From Gammaproteobacteria bacterium (GTDB lineage Bacteria > Pseudomonadota > Gammaproteobacteria > GCA-001735895), in the NCBI GenBank assembly GCA_020354435.1, contig CP070646.1:2988175-3021721 (forward strand): a stretch of DNA of 33,547 nucleotides, in the 5' to 3' direction. Below the pieces are notes generated by a model that was not told the DNA's origin, made no database searches, and saw only the letters and a list, made by a program, of their open reading frames with translations. This document shows, in pieces, positions 11,977 to 26,750 of the stretch. Both the position numbers and the translations under genes were made by a program. Every line of letters starts with the position of its first letter. Position 1 is the stretch's first letter.

Positions 11977-14016
11977 ATGCCGGCAATCGATATCAAGCGC
12001 TGGATGACGACGCTGCTGGCACAGTTGCGCACAAGCCGGCAGCGTCAGCTCGTGCTGCTGCAGGGACCGCAGGCCTGGTGTGACAGCCAGTTGGCCGCCC
12101 TCTCGGGACTCGATGTGGCATTGCTGCTGCTGTCGAATCGCAGCGAGTTGCCGGCGGCAATCGCGTTCGACAAGGTCGAGACCTGTCTCGGTAGCGAGAG
12201 CAGGCTGGTGGTCATGGACCTGTTCGACGGTTTCAATCCGGATGTGTTGTGCATTGCCGGCGGACTGGTGCGCGCCGCTGGTGTATTGATATTGCTGTCT
12301 CCGGAGAGTGAAAACTGGGACACCGCTTCTGATCGTTATGCCTGCTGGCAGGGCGGCAAGCGCTCTCCGCGCGCCTTTTTTGTCGAATACTTTTTCCGCA
12401 GTTTACAGCTCGATGGCGAAATCGGAATCCCGCTGACGCCGGATACTCAACCGGGCTCGACACCCGTGCTGCCGCAACTGGAGCAAACCCTGGTCGAAAA
12501 TGGCGAGACCGCTGAGCAGTCGGTCATCCTGCAACAGATCGAAAAATGGGCCGACGGCAAACCTGGTGGATGCATTCTGATCAGCGCCGATCGCGGTCGC
12601 GGAAAAAGTACCTGCCTCGGTCTGCTGGCCGCGCGTTTGCAGGCACGCCATCGGCTTCTGGTATCGGCAAATTCGCGAAGTACAGCGGCGCTGCTGCTGG
12701 CTCGAGTGCCCACGATCGAGTTCGTTGCCCCGGATCAGCTGCTGCGCCACTGCCCGCAGGCAGACCTGGTGCTGATCGACGAGGCGGCAATGATTCCACT
12801 GCCGATGCTGCGCCAACTGACCCGGATATATCCGAAACTGGTTCTGGCCACGACCACCGGCGGATACGAGGGCACCGGGCAGGGATTCATGCTGCGCTTC
12901 GTGGCGGACATGGAGAGCCGCGGCCTGCAGCGTTATCGGCTCGAGTCGCCGGTGCGCTGGTGTCGGGGCGACCTGCTCGAGGCCTGGCTCAACCGTTGCC
13001 TGTTGCTGCAGGCCGAAGACGACGAGGCGGTGGAATCACAGCAATCTGTCGACGATTATACCATCGAGCTGCTGGCGCAGCCGGGCGCGGCGGAAAACTG
13101 GCCGCTTTTGCGACGGGTTTACGCACTGCTGAACTCGGCGCATTACCGTACGCGACCCTCGGACCTGCGTATGCTGATGGAAAATCCCGATCAGCGGCTG
13201 CTCGTCGCACATCGCGATAACAACGTAATCGGCGTTGCCCTGTTGAATCTCGAGGGTGGTTTCAGCGAAACCCTGTGCGACGAAATATTTTACGGCCGGC
13301 GCCGACCGCAGGGTCACCTGCTGGCGCAGATGCTGACCGCGCAATCCGGCCTGAAACGATTTGCCGGATACCGCGGCCTGCGTGTGCAACGGATCGCGGT
13401 CGCCGCTGGCTGCCGTCGCCGCGGACTCGGAACGCGGCTGCTCGAGTACGCGTTCGAACTCGGTCGCGACAACGGCCTCGATTATATGGGTGCCAGTTTT
13501 GCGCTCGACCCCGATAGCGCGAGTTTCTGGCAGCAGGCTGGATTCCGGCTGGTACATGTCAGTTTTGCGCGGGGCAAGTCGAGCGGCAATCACTCGGTAG
13601 CGGTGCTGCGTCTGATCAACCCCGCGCTCGAGCCGGACATAAAACAGCTGCAGCAGCGTATCCAGCGGCAGTTGCCCATCTGGCTGATCCAGTTTTTACA
13701 GACCATGGAAGCGCAACAGGTAACCGCCCTGCTGCGCTTTGCCGACTATCGATATGAGCCGGCTGAACTGGAGCTGCAGGAAATCGAAGCCTTTGCCAGC
13801 GGTAACAAGGGTTTTGAACTCTGCTTTGCCAGCCTGCAAAGATTCGTCATGGGCTGTATCGCGCGGGGAGCAGATTCTCCCGACCGCCTGCTGGTCGAGA
13901 AAGCGGTACAGAATCGGGACTGGAGGCTGCTCGAACGCGAATCGGGTAGCGACGGCCGCAGGCAACTGCAGCAACGTCTGCGCCTGCAGGTCGATGCACT
14001 GCGTAAAGCTTGCTAA
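11977..14016 (+). CDS. tmcA: tRNA(Met) cytidine acetyltransferase TmcA (helicase plus GNAT)
   Basis: ADRGRGKS, IDEAAMIP, TTTGGYEGTGQGF, AHYRTRPSDL, RRPQGHL, RVQRIAV...RRRGLG. Confidence 0.9.
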   Translation: MPAIDIKRWMTTLLAQLRTSRQRQLVLLQGPQAWCDSQLAALSGLDVALLLLSNRSELPAAIAFDKVETCLGSESRLVVMDLFDGFNPDVLCIAGGLVRAAGVLILLSPESENWDTASDRYACWQGGKRSPRAFFVEYFFRSLQLDGEIGIPLTPDTQPGSTPVLPQLEQTLVENGETAEQSVILQQIEKWADGKPGGCILISADRGRGKSTCLGLLAARLQARHRLLVSANSRSTAALLLARVPTIEFVAPDQLLRHCPQADLVLIDEAAMIPLPMLRQLTRIYPKLVLATTTGGYEGTGQGFMLRFVADMESRGLQRYRLESPVRWCRGDLLEAWLNRCLLLQAEDDEAVESQQSVDDYTIELLAQPGAAENWPLLRRVYALLNSAHYRTRPSDLRMLMENPDQRLLVAHRDNNVIGVALLNLEGGFSETLCDEIFYGRRRPQGHLLAQMLTAQSGLKRFAGYRGLRVQRIAVAAGCRRRGLGTRLLEYAFELGRDNGLDYMGASFALDPDSASFWQQAGFRLVHVSFARGKSSGNHSVAVLRLINPALEPDIKQLQQRIQRQLPIWLIQFLQTMEAQQVTALLRFADYRYEPAELELQEIEAFASGNKGFELCFASLQRFVMGCIARGADSPDRLLVEKAVQNRDWRLLERESGSDGRRQLQQRLRLQVDALRKAC

Positions 14017-18050: not shown

Positions 18051-20783
18051 TTGCTAGCGCGTATTTACAGCTTCAAGTTCATTATCGGCTTCGCTCTGCT
18101 GTGGCTGGGCGCGCTCGCTTATGGGCTGGCGATTTACAGCACCCAGGTGTATCGCGCGCACGCGATCCAGGCGCAGGTCGACTCGCTGCAATCGATGCTC
18201 GAGCGCGAAAGCCGCGATGCCATTCGGCAACTCTACGAAAAGCAGAAGCAATTTGCCTTCAAACTGCAGAGCGAGGCTCCGTTCAAGGCGGCCTTGGAAA
18301 AACGCGATACCGCGAAGATGCAGGCCTGGCTCGGCGAAAGCTATAGCCGTTACCAGGTTGCCGCCGGCGAATTCAAACTCAAGACCATTGTCGTACGCGA
18401 TCTGTCCGGCCAGATTTTTGCCCACAGTTCTGACGACGGTCTCAATACTTATGCTGGCTGCCCGACCGCACTGGAATCGATCGGCGGTTCGCAAATCCGC
18501 CTGTTGAAACCGAGATACACTCTTTGCAGTTTCGACAAACAGCTGTTCAGCGAGGTACTGGTGCCGGTCGGAGCGTTCGAGCCCAGGGCCTATTTGCACA
18601 TCGTTGCCTACGCCGACGCCGGCCTGAAGGCCATCGAGCAACAGATGCGGATGCCGATCAATATCGATCATGGTGCCGGTTCGAATCTTTACCGTTCCTC
18701 GGACTGGATCGAAGCCGGTTCGGACAGTCATCTGTTTCCCAGTTACAAACTCTATGGTGACGATGCTTTTCTCGGTGCCGTCATCAGCGCCGCCTTCGAC
18801 CAGCAACCGGTTATCGATCGGCTGGCGAAAACCGAAACCAGTTTTTTCATCATCACCACGGTTGCCACGGTGAGCGCTTTGCTGCTGGTGCTGTTCCTGC
18901 TCAATCGCGCCTTCGTGCCAATGAACAAGCTGCGAAATTCGGTGGGTGCGCTGTTGACCGGACGTTACGCATCGATCAGCGAAGAAAAGTTACCGAGCGA
19001 GTTGAAAGATCTCGTGGTCGCCTACAACGAAATGGTCGAAGGCCTCGAAATCGAAACCATATCGCGCCGGCAGATGGAGGAAAAACTGCGCTCGGAGAAG
19101 GATTTTATCTCCACCACGCTCGACTCGATCACCAATCCGGTCATCGTTATCGATTCAAAAGACCGCATCAAACTGATGAATCCTGCTGCCGAGAAACTTT
19201 TTGGCGACAAGGAAGCGCAGCTGATCGATACGTCGATACACGAGGTTTTGATTCTCTACGCCAATCGCCAGACCACGCGCATCGTCGATATCAGCCAGCT
19301 GCTCTCGCGCAAGCTTTCGATCAGCTCGATGTTTTTCTACGACTCCGACCGCAATATCGTCGAGCTCGAGTTTTCCGCTTCGCCTATGATCGACATGGAG
19401 GCCGAGGACGTTGGCTTCGTCATCATTCTCAAGGACGTGTCCGAGGATCGCAAGCTGCGCCGCAAACTGAGCTATGAGGGCAGCCACGACCAGCTCACCG
19501 GTTTTCTCAACCGCGGTGCTTTCGAACAGAAATTCGAAACCCTGGTAACCGAGAACAACAACTCGGAGCCGCAGCACGTGCTCGCCTTCCTCGATATCGA
19601 CCAGTTCCGCGTGGTCAATGAAACCTGCGGCAGCGCGGCCGGCGACCTGCTGCTGAAACAGGTCAGCGCCATGGTTAAAAAACATGTGCGCAAGTCCGAT
19701 ATCCTGGCACGCCTGTCCGGCGATGAATTCGGCATTATCATGCCTTTCTTCGAGATGGAGGGCGCGCTGCAGGCGATCCAGAAAATTATCATCGAGATCC
19801 AGCATTCGGGATTCGTCTGGAATGAGCAGGAGTACCTGATTACCGCCAGTATCGGTGTCATGGTCTTCGGCCGCATGAGCGACGAATACGCCGATTTTTA
19901 TTCCAAGGTAACAACAGCCTGTTATCTGGCCAAGCAAAACGGCGGTAACCAATATCACTTCATCGGCGAAAATGATGAAAAAGTCATGGCCCAGCAGGTT
20001 TCGATGGAGTGGGTGGCCGGCATCATGGAGGGTTTCAGCGAAGATCGTTTCTGCCTGTATGTGCAACCAATCGTCTCCATCGACAAGGAGGAAAGTCATA
20101 CGCATTACGAAGTTCTGATTCGTTACATGGCTTCTGATGGCGCGATCATTTCACCCAACGACTTTCTGCCGCCGGCCGAACGTTACAACCTGATCGAGCG
20201 TATCGACAGCTGGGTGGTTACCAACGTTATCGACTGGCTGCAGCAGCATCAGCACAGGCTCAACGATGTCATGTTTTCGGTCAACCTGTCGGGGCGCAGC
20301 ATCGGTTCCCAGACTTTCCACAAGTTTCTGCGCGACAGCCTGACCGTCAGCGATATCGATATCAGTCAACTGTGTTTCGAAATTACCGAGACGGCGGTGG
20401 TCGACAACGTCGAGAAATCGGTCGAGTTCATTAATTCGATCAAGCAGCTCGGCGCCAAGTTTTCTCTCGACGATTTCGGAACCGGCTTGTCTTCGTTCAG
20501 CTACCTTAAGCAGTTTCCGGTGGATTATCTGAAGATCGATGGTGAATTCGTGCGCGATATCATCGACGACGACAAGAGTTATGTCTTCGTGCGTTCGATG
20601 ACCGAAGTGGGACATTGCCTCAATATGGAAGTGATCGCCGAGTTCGTCGAATCCGATACGATGTTCGAACTGCTGCGCAAGGCCAATGTCGACTATATCC
20701 AGGGATACCAGGTTGGGAAACCGGCCGCGATCGACACCCTGGTCGAGCACATGTCCGGCCTCGATCAGGCCAGTCAGGCCTGA
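18051..20783 (+). CDS. Membrane-bound diguanylate cyclase/phosphodiesterase (periplasmic sensor-HAMP-PAS-GGDEF-EAL)
   Basis: Two TM helices; HDQLTGFLNR, RKSD I-site, SGDEF, EVLIR, DDFGTG, AEFVE, QGY. Confidence 0.93.
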   Translation: MLARIYSFKFIIGFALLWLGALAYGLAIYSTQVYRAHAIQAQVDSLQSMLERESRDAIRQLYEKQKQFAFKLQSEAPFKAALEKRDTAKMQAWLGESYSRYQVAAGEFKLKTIVVRDLSGQIFAHSSDDGLNTYAGCPTALESIGGSQIRLLKPRYTLCSFDKQLFSEVLVPVGAFEPRAYLHIVAYADAGLKAIEQQMRMPINIDHGAGSNLYRSSDWIEAGSDSHLFPSYKLYGDDAFLGAVISAAFDQQPVIDRLAKTETSFFIITTVATVSALLLVLFLLNRAFVPMNKLRNSVGALLTGRYASISEEKLPSELKDLVVAYNEMVEGLEIETISRRQMEEKLRSEKDFISTTLDSITNPVIVIDSKDRIKLMNPAAEKLFGDKEAQLIDTSIHEVLILYANRQTTRIVDISQLLSRKLSISSMFFYDSDRNIVELEFSASPMIDMEAEDVGFVIILKDVSEDRKLRRKLSYEGSHDQLTGFLNRGAFEQKFETLVTENNNSEPQHVLAFLDIDQFRVVNETCGSAAGDLLLKQVSAMVKKHVRKSDILARLSGDEFGIIMPFFEMEGALQAIQKIIIEIQHSGFVWNEQEYLITASIGVMVFGRMSDEYADFYSKVTTACYLAKQNGGNQYHFIGENDEKVMAQQVSMEWVAGIMEGFSEDRFCLYVQPIVSIDKEESHTHYEVLIRYMASDGAIISPNDFLPPAERYNLIERIDSWVVTNVIDWLQQHQHRLNDVMFSVNLSGRSIGSQTFHKFLRDSLTVSDIDISQLCFEITETAVVDNVEKSVEFINSIKQLGAKFSLDDFGTGLSSFSYLKQFPVDYLKIDGEFVRDIIDDDKSYVFVRSMTEVGHCLNMEVIAEFVESDTMFELLRKANVDYIQGYQVGKPAAIDTLVEHMSGLDQASQA

Positions 20784-21878: not shown

Positions 21879-22592
21879 TCAGGCTTTTTTATCGAAGTCG
21901 ATCGACTTGATTCGCGGCGAAAGATTGATTTCGTCGATGACGATATTCGGGCTACTGCCTAGTATTTGCGCCACCAGTCGTGCCACATCGCCGACTTCGA
22001 TCGCATTCTCCTGGTTAGCGCCTGGTGCGAAAGGCAGGTCGTCGAAAAAGGGGCTGCGCACCATGCCTGGATTAATCAGGCTTACGTGGATGCCGTCGCT
22101 GGCGCAATCCTCGCGCAGCGACAGGCAGAATCCGCGCAGGCCAAATTTGCTGGCACAGTAAACGGCGCCCTTTTTGCCCGCTACCAGCGCCGACTCGGAA
22201 CCGATGAAGATCATCCGGCCCCGGCCGCGGCGACGCATGGACGGCAACAACAAACGGCTGATGATCATCGCGCTGAGCAGATTCACGCGCAGCAGTTCCT
22301 CCATCTGCGCGACGGAGAATTGCTCGATCGAACCGAAGCGACCGAGACCGGCGGCATGCACCAGGGCATCGACGTCGCGTTTTTCGAGTAGCGCCTTCAG
22401 TTGCGATTCGACTTGTGACGGATCGGCGAAGTCGAGCGGCAGCGCGGTGAAGTTTTCGTGTTCGAGTGCATCCACCTGGCCGCGTCGGCTGAGGCCGATG
22501 ACTTTATAGCCCTGCTGCAGCAGCAACTGCGCGCAGGCCAGGCCGATGCCGGAGCTGGCACCGCTAATCAGGACGGATTCTGTTTCAGCCAT
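21879..22592 (-). CDS. Short-chain dehydrogenase/reductase
   Basis: SGASSGIG, catalytic S...YCASK, INPGMVRS. Confidence 0.9.
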   Translation of the reverse strand: MAETESVLISGASSGIGLACAQLLLQQGYKVIGLSRRGQVDALEHENFTALPLDFADPSQVESQLKALLEKRDVDALVHAAGLGRFGSIEQFSVAQMEELLRVNLLSAMIISRLLLPSMRRRGRGRMIFIGSESALVAGKKGAVYCASKFGLRGFCLSLREDCASDGIHVSLINPGMVRSPFFDDLPFAPGANQENAIEVGDVARLVAQILGSSPNIVIDEINLSPRIKSIDFDKKA

Positions 22593-23583
22593 GCCATTCG
22601 CAGGGGTGGTAGCTTTCTGCCGGAATATGTTTCATCAATTCAGCTTCGCAGAACTCGATCATTGCCTGCTCGCGTTCGAGCGGGTAACTGATAATACCAT
22701 TGTCCAGCTGCATGTTTTGCGCGAACAGCGGCTCTTCCGGATATAGCCGCGAAATCCGGCGGAAATGATCGCGCGTCAGGCGGAAACTGCCGAGGCTGAC
22801 CGAGTGTAGTCTGGAGGCGTCAATTTTCGCGAAAACCTGTTGCAGCAATTCGACGAAGGCGTTCTGATAGTCGCGATGATAGACCACCGGATCGAAACGC
22901 AGACCTACCGGCCAGCCGGCATCGAGCAAACGGCGCATGGCGTCGACGCGTTTGTCGATCGCCGGCACTCCGTGTTCCAGCTTGCTGTGGCTGAAGCGAT
23001 CGCTGAAACTGAACGCGGTGACCACTCGCGCTACCGGCTCCATCTGCAGCATCGAGCGTACCTGCGTGCTCTTGGTGCGTAACTCCATCCAGGCGTTATC
23101 GATGGAAGCGATCAGTGGTACGAAGTATTCGGTGAAACGCGTCATTGGCTCGTTTGCCAGGCTGTCGCAGTCGTAACCCGAGTAAAACCAGACCGGCCGG
23201 TGCGGATGCGCCGCGGCGGTTTGACGGATCTGTTCGCCGAAATCCTCGTAGTTGACGAACAGTACCTGGTGCGCCGACTGGTACATGCCCTGTAAAAAGC
23301 AATAGCGACAATCGTAGATGCAGTTGAGCATATGCGAAAAGTAATAGTTGAAATCACCACCCAGGCCATAGCCGTCGGGCGCGGCCAGTACCTGACCACG
23401 GTTTTTGCGTGCGATGATCAGGGCTGGATTTTTTTTCTGCAGGCGAAAGTTCTGCGCGCGCGGGTTGAAAACCTCGCCGTAAAATTCGATTTCGGTCACG
23501 GGGAGTTTATGCAGGCGCTGAAGCAATCGCCGCGCGCGCGGATGATCGCGTAGCTCCGATTCTATGTAAACGCGGCTGACCAT
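22585..23583 (-). CDS. Spore photoproduct lyase-like radical SAM protein
   Basis: NCIYDCRYCFLQ (CxxxCxxC), FVNYED, ELRTKS, GLRFDPV, SLGSFR; start at ATG 23583, 2 bp after the upstream stop. Confidence 0.85.
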   Translation of the reverse strand: MVSRVYIESELRDHPRARRLLQRLHKLPVTEIEFYGEVFNPRAQNFRLQKKNPALIIARKNRGQVLAAPDGYGLGGDFNYYFSHMLNCIYDCRYCFLQGMYQSAHQVLFVNYEDFGEQIRQTAAAHPHRPVWFYSGYDCDSLANEPMTRFTEYFVPLIASIDNAWMELRTKSTQVRSMLQMEPVARVVTAFSFSDRFSHSKLEHGVPAIDKRVDAMRRLLDAGWPVGLRFDPVVYHRDYQNAFVELLQQVFAKIDASRLHSVSLGSFRLTRDHFRRISRLYPEEPLFAQNMQLDNGIISYPLEREQAMIEFCEAELMKHIPAESYHPCEWHG

Positions 23584-23585
23584 GG

Positions 23586-24395
23586 TTACAGTTCCTCGGC
23601 ATCGCGATAGCTGATTTGTTCCAGGGTCGCGATCATGCCGGCAGCGTTTTTTTGCTGCGCCAGCCTTTCCAGCAACGCCTCCGGACTGAAATCCCGATTC
23701 GACAGGTAGCGCCACAACACACGTAACCGGTTTTTCTGGGTTTGCGTGAAATGCGCCATTCCAAGCAGCTGCCGCCAGGACTCGGCGGAGAACTCCAGCG
23801 CCGATATTTCACTCTCGAGGTCGAGCAATGCGGTGGCCTCGATATCGATGGCCTCAATGTTACCCTGAATCAGGTCGCTCACCTGCTGACGCTTGCGGCC
23901 GGTCTGGTGACGGCGATTGTCGCTGATCACCTTTAACGAGCGGGTTAGTTCGGCGCTGCTGAAGCGCAGGGCACTGTAGATGAAGCCACTGGCCTCCATG
24001 TCGAACAGGCAGTCGTCGCGGTAGTCCTGTCTGGCCTCGCTGAGGGTCAGGCAGGCTCTGGCCGGCAGGGGTGAGGAAACCACGGGCGCGGGATAGTAAC
24101 GTTGGCCACTGTCCGCATCGACTATCTTGTCGAGCGCGAACAGCTTGCCGATGTCGTCTTCGGCGGCGCCGGCGACACCCAGATTGATCCAGGCCAGCGC
24201 CGGCTCACGCGCGTTTTGCGCAGCGATCCAGGCGCAGGCGGCGGCGCTGGCAATCTTGCCTGTGCCGCTGATGATGCAAACCATGCCGTCACCGCGGTAA
24301 ACGTCGAAGGCGTTATCGTCGTGTGATTTTTTCAGGCGATAGAAGTCGATGACCGGCTTGGCCTCGCAGTGTAATGCGCATACCCAGATCAGCAT
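23586..24395 (-). CDS. Nucleosidase/nucleoside phosphorylase fold protein (MTA/SAH nucleosidase-like) with C-terminal helical extension
   Basis: ALHCEA, SGTGKIASA, INLGVAG, DMEASG, KVISD. Confidence 0.8.
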   Translation of the reverse strand: MLIWVCALHCEAKPVIDFYRLKKSHDDNAFDVYRGDGMVCIISGTGKIASAAACAWIAAQNAREPALAWINLGVAGAAEDDIGKLFALDKIVDADSGQRYYPAPVVSSPLPARACLTLSEARQDYRDDCLFDMEASGFIYSALRFSSAELTRSLKVISDNRRHQTGRKRQQVSDLIQGNIEAIDIEATALLDLESEISALEFSAESWRQLLGMAHFTQTQKNRLRVLWRYLSNRDFSPEALLERLAQQKNAAGMIATLEQISYRDAEEL

Positions 24396-25225
24396 GACTG
24401 CCTCGCCCGCTGCCAGAAATCGCGCAGCGGCGCAAACTCGGCGATCAACGCTTTATTGTCATGCTTGATCGCACCTTTGAGCAGAATATCGAGCTTGGCC
24501 AGCAAAACCGCCGTAGTTGCCGAACGCTGTTCGGCTGAAAGCGTTTGTTGCGTGAGCAAGCGGTGCAGCGCGCGCACGCGAAAGCGGTCCATGATCGGAT
24601 GACGGCGCGATAGCTGGTCATCGTGGCCGCCGTACTTGACGATCAGGGCCGCCTCCAGGTAGTGCACCGGGTAGCGATGGCACAGGCGTAACCACAGGTC
24701 GTAATCTTCGCAGGCCGGCAGCGCCGGGTCGAACAGGCCCGATTCCAGCAACACCGATTTCCTGATAACCGATGCCGACGGTGATATCGCGCACAACGGC
24801 AGGCAGTGTTCGAAAATCCAGCCGCCACTCTTGCGGTGCTTGTTCATCGGATTGACCCGGACACCGCGTCGCATCCAGATTTCGTCGGAATGAAACAGGA
24901 CAAAATCCGGATGTTGCGCATGGGCGGCACGAATGCGGGCGATTTTCTCCGGCAGCCAGCTGTCGTCGGAATCGAGCAGTGCGATCCAGTCGAATCGAGC
25001 CGCGTTGATGCCTCGATTGCGCGCCTCGCTGACGCCGAGATTCGGCTGACGGATGATTTTAACGGCTGCATAGGCTTTTGCCACCATCTCGGCGCTGCCG
25101 TCGGTAGAGCCGTCGTCGACGAGTATGACCTCGTCCACTGGCGATGTTTGCGCGAATACTGACTCGAGCGCTCGCTCGAGCGTATGCCTGCGATTGTAAC
25201 TGGGTATGACGACGGATATACGCAT
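24389..25225 (-). CDS. Family 2 glycosyltransferase
   Basis: SVVIPSYNR, VDDGSTDGS, NLGVSEARNRG, LDSDD, EDYDLWLR; no TM segment. Confidence 0.92.
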   Translation of the reverse strand: MRISVVIPSYNRRHTLERALESVFAQTSPVDEVILVDDGSTDGSAEMVAKAYAAVKIIRQPNLGVSEARNRGINAARFDWIALLDSDDSWLPEKIARIRAAHAQHPDFVLFHSDEIWMRRGVRVNPMNKHRKSGGWIFEHCLPLCAISPSASVIRKSVLLESGLFDPALPACEDYDLWLRLCHRYPVHYLEAALIVKYGGHDDQLSRRHPIMDRFRVRALHRLLTQQTLSAEQRSATTAVLLAKLDILLKGAIKHDNKALIAEFAPLRDFWQRARQSC

Positions 25226-25248: not shown

Positions 25249-25581
25249 CTAGGACTTCTGCGGGATACTGGCCTGCCCCGGGAAAGTAGTGACGCTGGAG
25301 CCGTCGCTGTCGAGAATGCGGTTTTTGCCGCTGCGTTCCACCTCGTCGATGCGGATGACGGCGAAGTGCGGAATATAGGTATTTTTGACGTTGGCAAATT
25401 CAAGCTTGAGTTTTTCCTCCGCGGGGTCGATCAGCAGCTTGGACTGCTCGCCGAAGATTATTTCACCGATCTCGATGAATCCCGCCATCTGCGACTGGCT
25501 GACTTCGTGCGCATAGAGTTCGTATATCTTGTTATTGTTATGGAACTGGATGCGGAAAGTCGGTTTCTTTGACTTGCTCAT
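25249..25581 (-). CDS. DUF1820-like protein
   Basis: F.N.NKIYELYA, GFIEI, DPAEEKLK.EF, YIP..AVIRIDEV. Confidence 0.75.
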   Translation of the reverse strand: MSKSKKPTFRIQFHNNNKIYELYAHEVSQSQMAGFIEIGEIIFGEQSKLLIDPAEEKLKLEFANVKNTYIPHFAVIRIDEVERSGKNRILDSDGSSVTTFPGQASIPQKS

Positions 25582-25590
25582 AACTAAAAA

Positions 25591-25851
25591 CTAATTCGAC
25601 TGCATCAACTCGTCAAGCTCGCCATCCATGTGTAGCTCGGTGAGCTCATCGAATCCGCCGATGGGTTTGCCGTCTATGATGATCTGCGGCACCGTGCGTG
25701 AACCGTTGGTGACATCGAGAAATTCCTTCATTGCCGCATTGTCGTTGTCGATGCGAACTTCGTCGTAATCGATTTCCCATTTCTCCAGCATCATCTTGGC
25801 GCTATTGCAAAAGGCGCAATTTGCCGTGCTGTAAACTGTAACTCGGGCCAT
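25591..25851 (-). CDS. grxC: Glutaredoxin (Grx3/GrxC-like)
   Basis: CAFC dithiol, RTVPQI, IGGFDEL; ATG 25851 with AGGA RBS. Confidence 0.88.
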   Translation of the reverse strand: MARVTVYSTANCAFCNSAKMMLEKWEIDYDEVRIDNDNAAMKEFLDVTNGSRTVPQIIIDGKPIGGFDELTELHMDGELDELMQSN

Positions 25852-25927
25852 GGTTTCCTGCCGTCCGAAAAAAGTGGTGCGCAATTTTACTACAGAGTTT
25901 GCCGCTGCCATAGTCGGCACAAACAGA

Positions 25928-26435: not shown

Positions 26436-26750
26436 TCAACAGGGTTCCTGTACCAGTACCCAGGGTTTCACCACGACCGCCCACAGCGTGGCGTCGGCTT
26501 CGATCCATTCGCGCGCCTGCGCATCGGCGACGGGGCCGATCTGCATCGAATCAGTCCATTTTTTAACCTGCTCGATATCGTCCTGCTCGAGCGCGTAGGC
26601 GACATCGACCAGGTCCAGTTCGGAATCGACCCGCATGACCTTGCCGGCGGCGAAGAAACGCTGTAGTTCCGACCATCCGATCCTGGCAGTCTCGCTGTTG
26701 ATCCTGGCGTGCTTGAGTTCGCGGTCCCGGCGCAGCAGTTCTTCGATCAC
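26436..26750 (-). CDS. DUF2288 family protein
   Basis: ETARIGWSELQRFFAAG, LDLVDVA, LWAVVVKPWVLVQE; 4-bp overlap with the oxyR stop. Confidence 0.82.
   Translation of the reverse strand: MIEELLRRDRELKHARINSETARIGWSELQRFFAAGKVMRVDSELDLVDVAYALEQDDIEQVKKWTDSMQIGPVADAQAREWIEADATLWAVVVKPWVLVQEPC

Follow-up and report, generated by a model that had tools for sequence, protein, structure and literature searches.

In the arsenosugar route, the radical S-adenosylmethionine (SAM) enzyme ArsS adenosylates dimethylarsenite, and an MftF-like glycosyltransferase of family 2 (GT2; TIGR04283) is associated with it. In the hopanoid side chain, as outlined in PMC13459092, HpnH is the radical SAM adenosylhopane synthase, the PNP-family enzyme HpnG cleaves off adenine, reduction leads to bacteriohopanetetrol, and HpnI is the glycosyltransferase. 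Methylthioxylose capping of mycobacterial lipoarabinomannan starts from 5'-methylthioadenosine, according to PMC11127046 and PMC12088412. Here, we analyzed a window of 33,547 nucleotides (the whole stretch of DNA under study) from a Gammaproteobacteria genome. On its minus strand, at 21879-25225, four consecutive and co-directional open reading frames (ORFs) encode a GT2, a nucleosidase, a radical SAM enzyme with the fold of spore photoproduct lyase (SPL), and a short-chain dehydrogenase/reductase (SDR). The best explanation is that the window holds one copy of a widespread, uncharacterised four-enzyme pathway, the core of which is the SPL-fold radical SAM enzyme together with the nucleosidase. 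A full-text literature search, covering articles without their supplements, found no paper on this cassette, and the accessible text of a 2026 review of lipid-modifying radical SAM enzymes (PMC13459092) does not mention SPL.

Three architectures with the same four functions were found, and the window represents type 1. To describe its conservation, we used a family-balanced sample of 401 Gammaproteobacteria genomes, in which kin among the genomes are not independent. Orthologues of the radical SAM enzyme comprise 50 full-length proteins (E ≤ 1e-83, at least 42% identity) and one which is truncated at a contig end. The gap to other SPL-like proteins is clear, as those appear at E ≥ 1e-29. About 6 kb on each side of 49 orthologues from 49 other genomes were then surveyed. 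In 42 of these 49 loci, the radical SAM gene is immediately preceded by the nucleosidase gene on the same strand. Among the seven loci without an adjacent nucleosidase gene, one leaves no room on the contig, one leaves about 1 kb, and two carry an unannotated ORF of 220 or 246 aa at the place of the nucleosidase gene. The GT2 gene is present in 32 of the 49 loci and the SDR gene is adjacent, directly downstream of the radical SAM gene, in 31; all three partners occur together in 17. No other gene family stands beside the cassette in more than six loci. A PTP-like phosphatase gene is inserted between the GT2 and nucleosidase genes in two of them, and a sodium:solute symporter gene is found beside the cassette in three. 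Metagenomes contributed a further 80 loci, 48 of which have enough flanking sequence; they were ranked by similarity and probably represent a few abundant lineages. In these 48, the SDR gene was found 46 times (directly downstream of the radical SAM gene), the nucleosidase gene 21 times, and the GT2 gene 20 times.

At the level of whole genomes, the same 401 genomes were searched with the nucleosidase profile and the GT2 protein, and the resulting lists were compared. The nucleosidase (E ≤ 1e-10) is encoded in 50 of the 51 genomes with a type-1 radical SAM gene. The 51st carries a divergent ORF in the nucleosidase slot, the C-terminal domain of which still matches (E 1e-5). Four genomes with a locus reduced to the radical SAM and SDR genes all encode a full-length nucleosidase elsewhere (E 1e-66 to 1e-85), once next to a GT2 gene. 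Outside the 51 genomes, we found eight "short" nucleosidases without the C-terminal domain and one partial match resembling an ordinary 5'-methylthioadenosine/S-adenosylhomocysteine (MTA/SAH) nucleosidase (MTAN). Orthologue-level GT2 matches (E ≤ 1e-45) occur in 54 of the 400 scored genomes, and all 54 possess an SPL-like/nucleosidase system (type 1 in 43, type 2 in 8, and type 3 in 3); the other 338 scored genomes gave no GT2 orthologue. The calls for GT2 and SDR orthologues rest on gaps in E-value and identity. Hence, the radical SAM enzyme and the nucleosidase form the obligate core, and the reductase and the GT2 are accessory, because only the latter two are missing from part of the type-1 genomes. 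The cassette is patchy, as another 400 genomes of the phylum, sampled in a different way, contained it only once.

In type 2, the GT2, a short nucleosidase, and the SDR form an operon with no radical SAM gene inside (L098, L189-L195), which is complete in six of eight loci. Its GT2 is 52-57% and its SDR 41-45% identical to the protein of the window. A longer SPL-like radical SAM gene (about 420-480 aa) is present in seven of the eight genomes, on another contig in six of these and convergent next door in the seventh. This last case, L098 (G325:C69, 3659-7257), encodes a 476-aa SPL-like protein with an unassigned N-terminal region of about 190 residues and the SPL domain from about residue 198. 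We considered whether the type-2 N-terminal extension is the C-terminal domain missing from the short nucleosidase and rejected the idea, as the two show no similarity in hhalign (probability 1.4%). Type 3 was seen in three genomes from two families (loci L091, L092, L093 at G053:C4, 4752-9322, L196, and L197). It combines a nucleosidase(PNP_UDP_1)-GT2 fusion of about 500 aa with an SPL-like gene which is directly followed by an aldo-keto reductase (AKR) gene in all three genomes. In L093, a thioredoxin gene directly precedes the type-3 locus.

The two core enzymes are also found fused to each other. A nucleosidase-radical SAM fusion of 657 aa is encoded in L079; it was the only one found in a search for longer proteins, which is weak evidence. 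In Fusobacterium vincentii, a 623-aa fusion ORF is followed by an SDR gene, and the model of a 207-member cluster of 619-aa Fusobacteriota proteins aligns with the nucleosidase. Apparent fusions in G274 and G194, suggested by long open frames, were discarded because they are frame overlaps instead. The cassette was seen in sediment Gammaproteobacteria and in F. vincentii, and clusters of look-alike proteins have members labelled Fusobacteriota, Bdellovibrionota, Bacillota, Chlamydiota, and Acidobacteriota. The F. vincentii locus (L102, NZ_CP084075.1, 1186666-1199607) is on a replicon with a plasmid label which, at 2.1 Mb, resembles a chromosome; the neighbours of the fusion are YjbR, SDR, MBL-fold, UDG-superfamily, 5-formyl-THF cyclo-ligase, and KpsF-like genes. 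A homologue (31-32% identical) occurs in L103, that is, in MT835514.1 (and MT835770.1), which are unverified and unannotated "Bacteriophage sp." records from faeces. They encode an SDR, a 160-aa ORF, and the SPL-like radical SAM protein, and their content looks bacterial rather than phage. A radical SAM-HhH/DUF4130 pair is encoded near this copy, as are cation-efflux and B12-radical SAM/DUF4080 proteins. As a nucleosidase candidate, we tried the 160-aa ORF, which separates the SDR gene from the radical SAM gene, but it is not nucleosidase-like.

The radical SAM enzyme belongs to the broad SPL family, as it scores 60.1 bits against PF20903 (threshold 27). It stays far below the equivalog cut-offs, with 73.5 bits against 400 for TIGR04070 (spore photoproduct lyase, EC 4.1.99.14) and 47.5 bits against 437.55 for TIGR03886 (the SPL family of non-sporulating bacteria). 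The NCBIfam scan at E ≤ 0.001 returned SPL and Rv2578c-type models only. An AF2 model calculated from orthologue alignments has a pLDDT of 91.4 and superimposes over its full length on the SPL (SplB) structures 4fhf and 4fhc from Geobacillus thermodenitrificans (Foldseek TM 0.85-0.87, 17-18% identity over about 343 columns). Hence, the predicted fold and the CxxxCxxC motif are shared with SplB. To map single residues, we aligned the enzyme with the Geobacillus SPL chain by HMMER and looked up the positions discussed in PMC3467042. According to that paper, Lys174 and Ser195 of SPL bind SAM, Arg273 contacts SAM and the lesion phosphate, Cys140 is the H-atom donor, and Arg193, Glu268, and Tyr339 bind dihydrothymine; its authors propose that SAM may be regenerated through a Cys140/Tyr98 relay.

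The cluster cysteines, Tyr96, Lys174, Ser195, and Arg273 of SPL are kept as C88/C92/C95, Y94, K171, S192, and R268. The three cysteines are invariant among the orthologues and R268 is invariant in type 1. The beta-hairpin is retained, and the tyrosine Y300 in the hairpin region is kept in all three types.

The column of the donor Cys140 is occupied by Tyr137 in at least 90% of 45 sequences. A cysteine two residues further on (Cys139) is found in less than 90% of them, and the segment 70-80, which contains the position of the alternative clostridial donor (Ser76 position), has no cysteine. Across the three types, the Cys140 position holds Tyr, Glu, or Gln. The relay partner Tyr98 is replaced by Phe96 in 45 of 45 type-1 sequences, and its column holds Phe or Ser in the SPL-like enzymes of types 2 and 3. 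Of the dihydrothymine-binding residues, Arg193 corresponds to an invariant Ala190 and Glu268 lands in a two-residue deletion; the comparison of this site rests on these two, with Tyr339 outside the mapping. The type-2 and type-3 enzymes are likewise without equivalents of Cys140, Tyr98, Arg193, and Glu268.

Unlike SplB, the cassette enzyme therefore lacks the relay Cys/Tyr and the dihydrothymine-binding Arg/Glu, is obligately paired with a nucleosidase, and occurs in non-sporulating hosts. The hosts are Gammaproteobacteria, as given in the record titles of the close metagenome-assembled genomes (MAGs), and Gammaproteobacteria form no endospores. Because the four SPL residues are absent, the enzyme is, by its sequence, not a canonical spore photoproduct (SP) lyase, in agreement with the first-pass annotation of this DNA. 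The function of the cassette is probably not spore-photoproduct repair.

The nucleosidase gave no Pfam match, and its score against futalosine hydrolase (TIGR03664) is a weak N-terminal match of 34 bits (cut-off 124.7). Its relationship became visible in the AF2 model (pLDDT 94.4, orthologue alignments as input), since all of the Foldseek matches listed (to rank 50) are MTA/SAH or futalosine nucleosidases, with E-values down to 1.7e-12. The catalytic domain comprises about 175 aa and is followed by a helical C-terminal domain (residues about 180-269, i.e., about 90 residues), which has no counterpart in the solved structures matched by Foldseek. Invariant in 37 sequences are E11, G46, N71/G73/G76, E134, K155, and D159, which align with the MTAN catalytic motifs in a comparison of the profile with PDB sequences; the motifs can also be read as E11, M133-E134, and S158-D159. 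Thus, the fold and the equivalents of E12, SGIGK, NTGSAG, ME174, and SD197 are shared with MTAN (Pfs) and MqnB. In MTAN, Glu12, Glu174, and Asp197 are catalytic, with E11, E134, and D159 as equivalents, and E134 presumably corresponds to the Glu that binds the ribose 2',3'-OH. Judged by these motifs, the active site is intact and of the adenine-releasing MTAN type. In contrast to MTAN and MqnB, the cassette nucleosidase falls below every Pfam and NCBIfam cut-off and its gene is always tied to an SPL-like radical SAM gene; solved MTANs are also without the C-terminal helical domain. At E ≤ 1e-30, the family has 2258 cluster representatives. The genome of the window encodes an MTAP/MTIP-type phosphorylase elsewhere, as a separate housekeeping enzyme.

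The C-terminal domain of the nucleosidase is present where the partner is the short type-1 radical SAM enzyme and absent with the other types. In a model of the complex of the two proteins, the ipSAE was 0.79, compared with 0.00 for the best control; this mark is reached by 58 of 80 solved complexes and by 2 of 110 mismatched pairs. The runs have at least 93% of contacts in common, with a partner pLDDT of at least 88. On the nucleosidase side, the predicted interface is formed by the helices 193-269 and the loops 99-112 and 143-150. The radical SAM enzyme is predicted to contribute the N-terminal segment 3-54 (with the conserved residues Q44, R47, and Q49), the loops 197-202 and 234-237 beside the SAM site, and residues 278-290, which directly precede the beta-hairpin. 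The face of this enzyme that the nucleosidase would cover was read from these residue lists rather than from coordinates. The model supports a role of the C-terminal helical domain in docking onto the radical SAM enzyme, which fits because the domain tracks the short type-1 partner.

The two accessory enzymes are regular members of large families. The GT2 scores 114.7 bits against PF00535 and has no predicted membrane segments. Its motifs DxDD (D85, D87, D88) and ED (E173, D174) are invariant in 35 sequences, and the motif GGHxDQLS at 199-206 is specific for the family. No NCBIfam equivalog cut-off is reached; the best models are EpsD, MftF, and the arsenosugar-associated TIGR04283, and the protein is far below all of them (63.6 bits for TIGR04283, cut-off 182). 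The SDR scores 136 bits against PF00106 and also reaches no NCBIfam equivalog cut-off. In 32 sequences, the G11xxxG15xG17 loop, N104, S132, Y145, and K149 are invariant; hence, the N-S-Y-K tetrad is present. R36 after strand 2 is invariant as well and, by the usual SDR rules, suggests NADP(H).

The coordinates of the cassette genes and of further genes in the window are collected in Table 1. The first-pass annotation had described a 7-nt overlap, a 2-nt gap, and an 8-nt overlap between genes with intact core motifs. Direct reading of the sequence bears out all three junctions, and the motifs are present in all four proteins and conserved among their orthologues. The stop of the GT2 gene and the start of the nucleosidase gene overlap in ATGCTGA (24389-24395), the TAA of the nucleosidase gene is separated by CC (23584-23585) from the ATG of the radical SAM gene, and the stop of the latter overlaps the SDR start in ATGGCTGA (22585-22592). 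For the radical SAM gene, we chose the ATG at the position of residue 1 in the orthologues. The longest ORF, which starts from a GTG at 23715, was rejected because it runs over the nucleosidase gene and is given no support by the alignments. The cassette genes are thus real and translationally coupled. Overlaps of genes are common in operons, so it is the conservation in other genomes, not the overlaps, that places the arrangement beyond chance. In a consensus scan, the minus strand within the cassette showed no terminator-like site; overall, the scan for promoters and terminators did no better than on shuffles.

Table 1 Genes of the cassette and selected neighbours in the window
Feature	Position	Strand	Length (aa)	Remarks
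GT2 glycosyltransferase	24389..25225	(-)	278	Family 2, soluble
MTAN-fold adenine nucleosidase-like protein	23586..24395	(-)	269	
SPL-fold radical SAM enzyme	22585..23583	(-)	332	C88xxxC92xxC95
Classical SDR	21879..22592	(-)	237	
DUF1820 protein	25249..25581	(-)	110	PF08850, 125.5 bits; 23 nt upstream of the GT2 gene
Glutaredoxin 3-like gene	25591..25854	(-)	87	From internal ATG; 9 nt upstream of the DUF1820 gene
ORF overlapping the stop of the OxyR-like gene	26436-26750	(-)	104	No NCBIfam match
Sensor-like protein	18051-20783	(+)	910	Translation resembles a membrane sensor
TmcA-like tRNA(Met) cytidine acetyltransferase homologue	11977-14016	(+)	679	290 bits, cut-off 700

Upstream of the cassette, the DUF1820 gene is possibly an operon member in this lineage only. 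It is syntenic in nine close MAG loci, L089, and L090 and stands beside the cassette in L042; in the remaining genome loci examined, it is not next to the cassette. The glutaredoxin 3-like gene (PF00462, 64.5 bits; TIGR02181, 88.6 bits, cut-off 90) is possibly the first gene of the transcription unit, with a weak link to the cassette; a glutaredoxin gene adjoins the cassette in 4 of the 49 genome loci, from three families. The nine close MAG loci keep the whole order glutaredoxin-DUF1820-GT2-nucleosidase-radical SAM-SDR. Of two runs with an RNA-Seq label, which is a guess, X19 yields short contigs that match parts of the cassette at 100% identity: the 3' end of the SDR gene, the radical SAM and GT2 genes, and the stretch across the nucleosidase/radical SAM junction (23401-23639). 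They were not used as evidence of expression because carry-over of DNA is possible; none of the listed holders is recorded as RNA. With regard to a link to defence systems or phages, PADLOC gave no match and PHROG a match below threshold only.

Within the SDR-less type-1 loci, a Dus gene begins 6 nt past the radical SAM stop in L061, L067, and L073, all of one genus; this is possibly chance synteny and is of interest as SPL chemistry acts on a dihydropyrimidine. A zinc-ADH/MDR gene was tried as the substitute reductase of SDR-less loci and rejected, because it is kept only between L070 and L056 of one family. A CysB-type regulator gene lies downstream of the cassette, and the gene of the 910-aa sensor-like protein, with GGDEF-like (SGDEF) and EAL-like segments, converges on it. 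On the other side, the 104-aa ORF is located directly downstream of the OxyR-like gene and is kept at 55-75% identity in the close MAG loci.

What the four enzymes may do together is best discussed with the hopanoid pathway in mind. By analogy to HpnH and HpnG, we propose that the cassette encodes an undescribed pathway which takes an adenosyl-derived ribose through loss of adenine, reduction, and glycosylation, and we regard this proposal as evenly poised between right and wrong. The radical SAM enzyme would consume SAM as a co-substrate and add the 5'-deoxyadenosyl radical to an sp2 carbon of an abundant acceptor, so that the 5'-deoxyadenosyl group would stay on the product. The docked nucleosidase would then hydrolyse off adenine, which would expose the hemiacetal of the ribose. 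An NADPH-type carbonyl reductase (the SDR, or the AKR in type 3) might turn the open-chain aldehyde into a polyol, to which the GT2 would finally add a sugar. Three observations bear on this sequence. Where the radical SAM gene is unlinked, the nucleosidase is still encoded together with the GT2 and the reductase or in fusion with them, which makes a ribosyl product likelier to be an intermediate than waste. The swap of SDR and AKR points to a carbonyl reduction, for example of an open-chain aldose. Consumption of SAM as a co-substrate is in keeping with the loss of the Cys140/Tyr98 relay. More specifically, and with less confidence, we suggest a C-adenosylating two-enzyme machine leading to a reduced, glycosylated, ribose-derived C5 chain on a common acceptor; tentatively, radical adenosylation would then have arisen independently a fourth time, besides HpnH, MqnE, and ArsS.

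The hopanoid pathway has the same activities in the same logical order, i.e., radical SAM reaction, removal of adenine, ring opening with reduction, and glycosylation. It differs in that the cassette radical SAM enzyme has the SPL fold, with no HpnH model among its NCBIfam matches, and in that the cassette nucleosidase has an extra docking domain. Squalene-hopene cyclase (PF13243) was not found in the genome of the window, which is 84.8% complete. The methylthioxylose route is similar in that an adenosine metabolite supplies a 5-substituted pentose which is installed by a transferase; however, it has no radical SAM enzyme, and it uses a lipid-linked donor and a GT-C enzyme, neither of which is seen in the cassette. 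Radical adenosylation and a small, soluble, MftF-like GT2 are shared with the arsenosugar route, but the cassette GT2 lies below the TIGR04283 cut-off, the radical SAM enzyme belongs to a family other than ArsS, and the cassette loci contain no arsenic methyltransferase.

The first-pass annotation had suggested one undescribed tailoring route with this gene set and knew of no characterised pathway that has it, and it had recommended a gene-neighbourhood and co-occurrence analysis. The genes prove co-conserved at the level of loci and of genomes and are joined in fusions, which supports such a route, and the literature search agrees with its novelty. Of the two models put forward there, the HpnH/HpnG-like one gains from the new evidence and is favoured here, since the nucleosidase accompanies or is fused to the GT2 and the reductase even apart from the radical SAM gene and since an AKR takes the place of the SDR in type 3. 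The other, clearance of 5'-deoxyadenosine (5'-dA), keeps a small share and is considered below.

Several points weigh against the adenosylation proposal. The GT2 is absent from 8 of the 51 type-1 genomes (present in 43), about one third of the type-1 systems are without a dedicated reductase, and an orthologue-level SDR was not found in any of the five SDR-less genomes searched. Among the metagenome loci, 27 of 48 consist of the radical SAM and SDR genes only. As the pair alone is obligate, clearance of 5'-dA would fit that pair equally well. The three radical SAM types have no H-atom donor residue in common. The ipSAE value expresses the confidence of the model and is no measurement, and the alignments behind it were made in this analysis. 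The chemistry is inferred. Finally, the SPL fold, Y300, and the DNA-related genes near the Fusobacterium fusion (UDG-superfamily, YjbR) would also be compatible with a nucleic acid as the substrate.

The alternative which survives best is that the radical SAM enzyme performs an ordinary H-atom abstraction, the docked nucleosidase clears the inhibitory 5'-dA, and the SDR and GT2 act on the main substrate. We consider it unlikely. Docking and fusion of the two proteins would suit the local removal of a product, and the loss of the Cys140/Tyr98 relay predicts that 5'-dA is formed stoichiometrically. It also counts for this explanation that MTAN-type enzymes hydrolyse 5'-dA, as stated in PMC6079011. 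However, the genome already has the MTAP/MTIP-type phosphorylase, and a scavenger would be expected beside the radical SAM gene. In type 2, the nucleosidase is instead located in the GT2/SDR operon, and six of seven genomes have the radical SAM gene on a different contig; in type 3, it is fused to the GT2 rather than to the radical SAM enzyme.

Still more doubtful is an explanation in which 5'-dA or a close adenosyl metabolite is itself the building block. It would be generated by the radical SAM enzyme, the nucleosidase or a phosphorylase would free the 5-deoxypentose, and this would be reduced or epimerised by the reductase and installed by the GT2 on a glycan or lipid carrier. Methylthioxylose sets a precedent for an adenosine metabolite as the source of a pentofuranose (PMC11127046 and, for Rv0539/mtxS, PMC12088412). 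The fusion of nucleosidase and GT2 supports a hand-over between both enzymes, and the PTP-like phosphatase inserted in two loci hints at a phosphorylated sugar intermediate. Such a route, however, needs a radical SAM enzyme that evolved for uncoupled SAM cleavage, which is to our knowledge unprecedented. Membrane segments are not predicted in the GT2, a GT-C partner is absent from every locus, and the hydrolase-type MTAN motifs would yield no sugar-1-phosphate for activation.

A nucleic-acid substrate, either as repair of a non-SP lesion in DNA or RNA or as a hypermodified base with the partners processing the adduct, is drawn from the full-length SPL fold with its hairpin and Y300, from the invariant R268 (the equivalent of the SAM and lesion-phosphate contact), and from neighbours such as the UDG-superfamily and YjbR genes of Fusobacterium, the radical SAM-HhH/DUF4130 pair near the gut contig copy, and the Dus gene directly downstream in one genus, but we hold it improbable, as the dihydrothymine-recognising Arg193 and Glu268 and the donor Cys are missing, the invariant Glu134 (equivalent to the Glu of MTAN that binds the ribose 2',3'-OH) implies a free ribonucleoside-type substrate, the predicted docking site (285-290 and the SAM-side loops) would be expected to crowd the DNA-binding face of SPL, the protein is near neutral (pI 7.2), and the DNA-related neighbours come from a single lineage each, with no PADLOC match.

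Such genes carry the database label "spore photoproduct lyase" or "DNA photolyase" in thousands of bacteria that do not sporulate, and the evidence given here says that this label is wrong. For the nucleosidase family with its 2258 representatives, no curated model reaches its cut-off on the member in the window. The core consists of two soluble proteins with natural fusions, and SAM is the only required co-substrate known so far; hence, the question is directly testable. If clearance of 5'-dA is the answer, the nucleosidase would be the first dedicated and physically coupled 5'-dA-removal partner of a radical SAM enzyme. If the adenosylation proposal is true, the cassette would represent a new radical SAM reaction on the SPL scaffold together with a family of glycosylated products and, thus, a new class of polyol-glycoside-decorated metabolite or lipid in bacteria without hopanoids.

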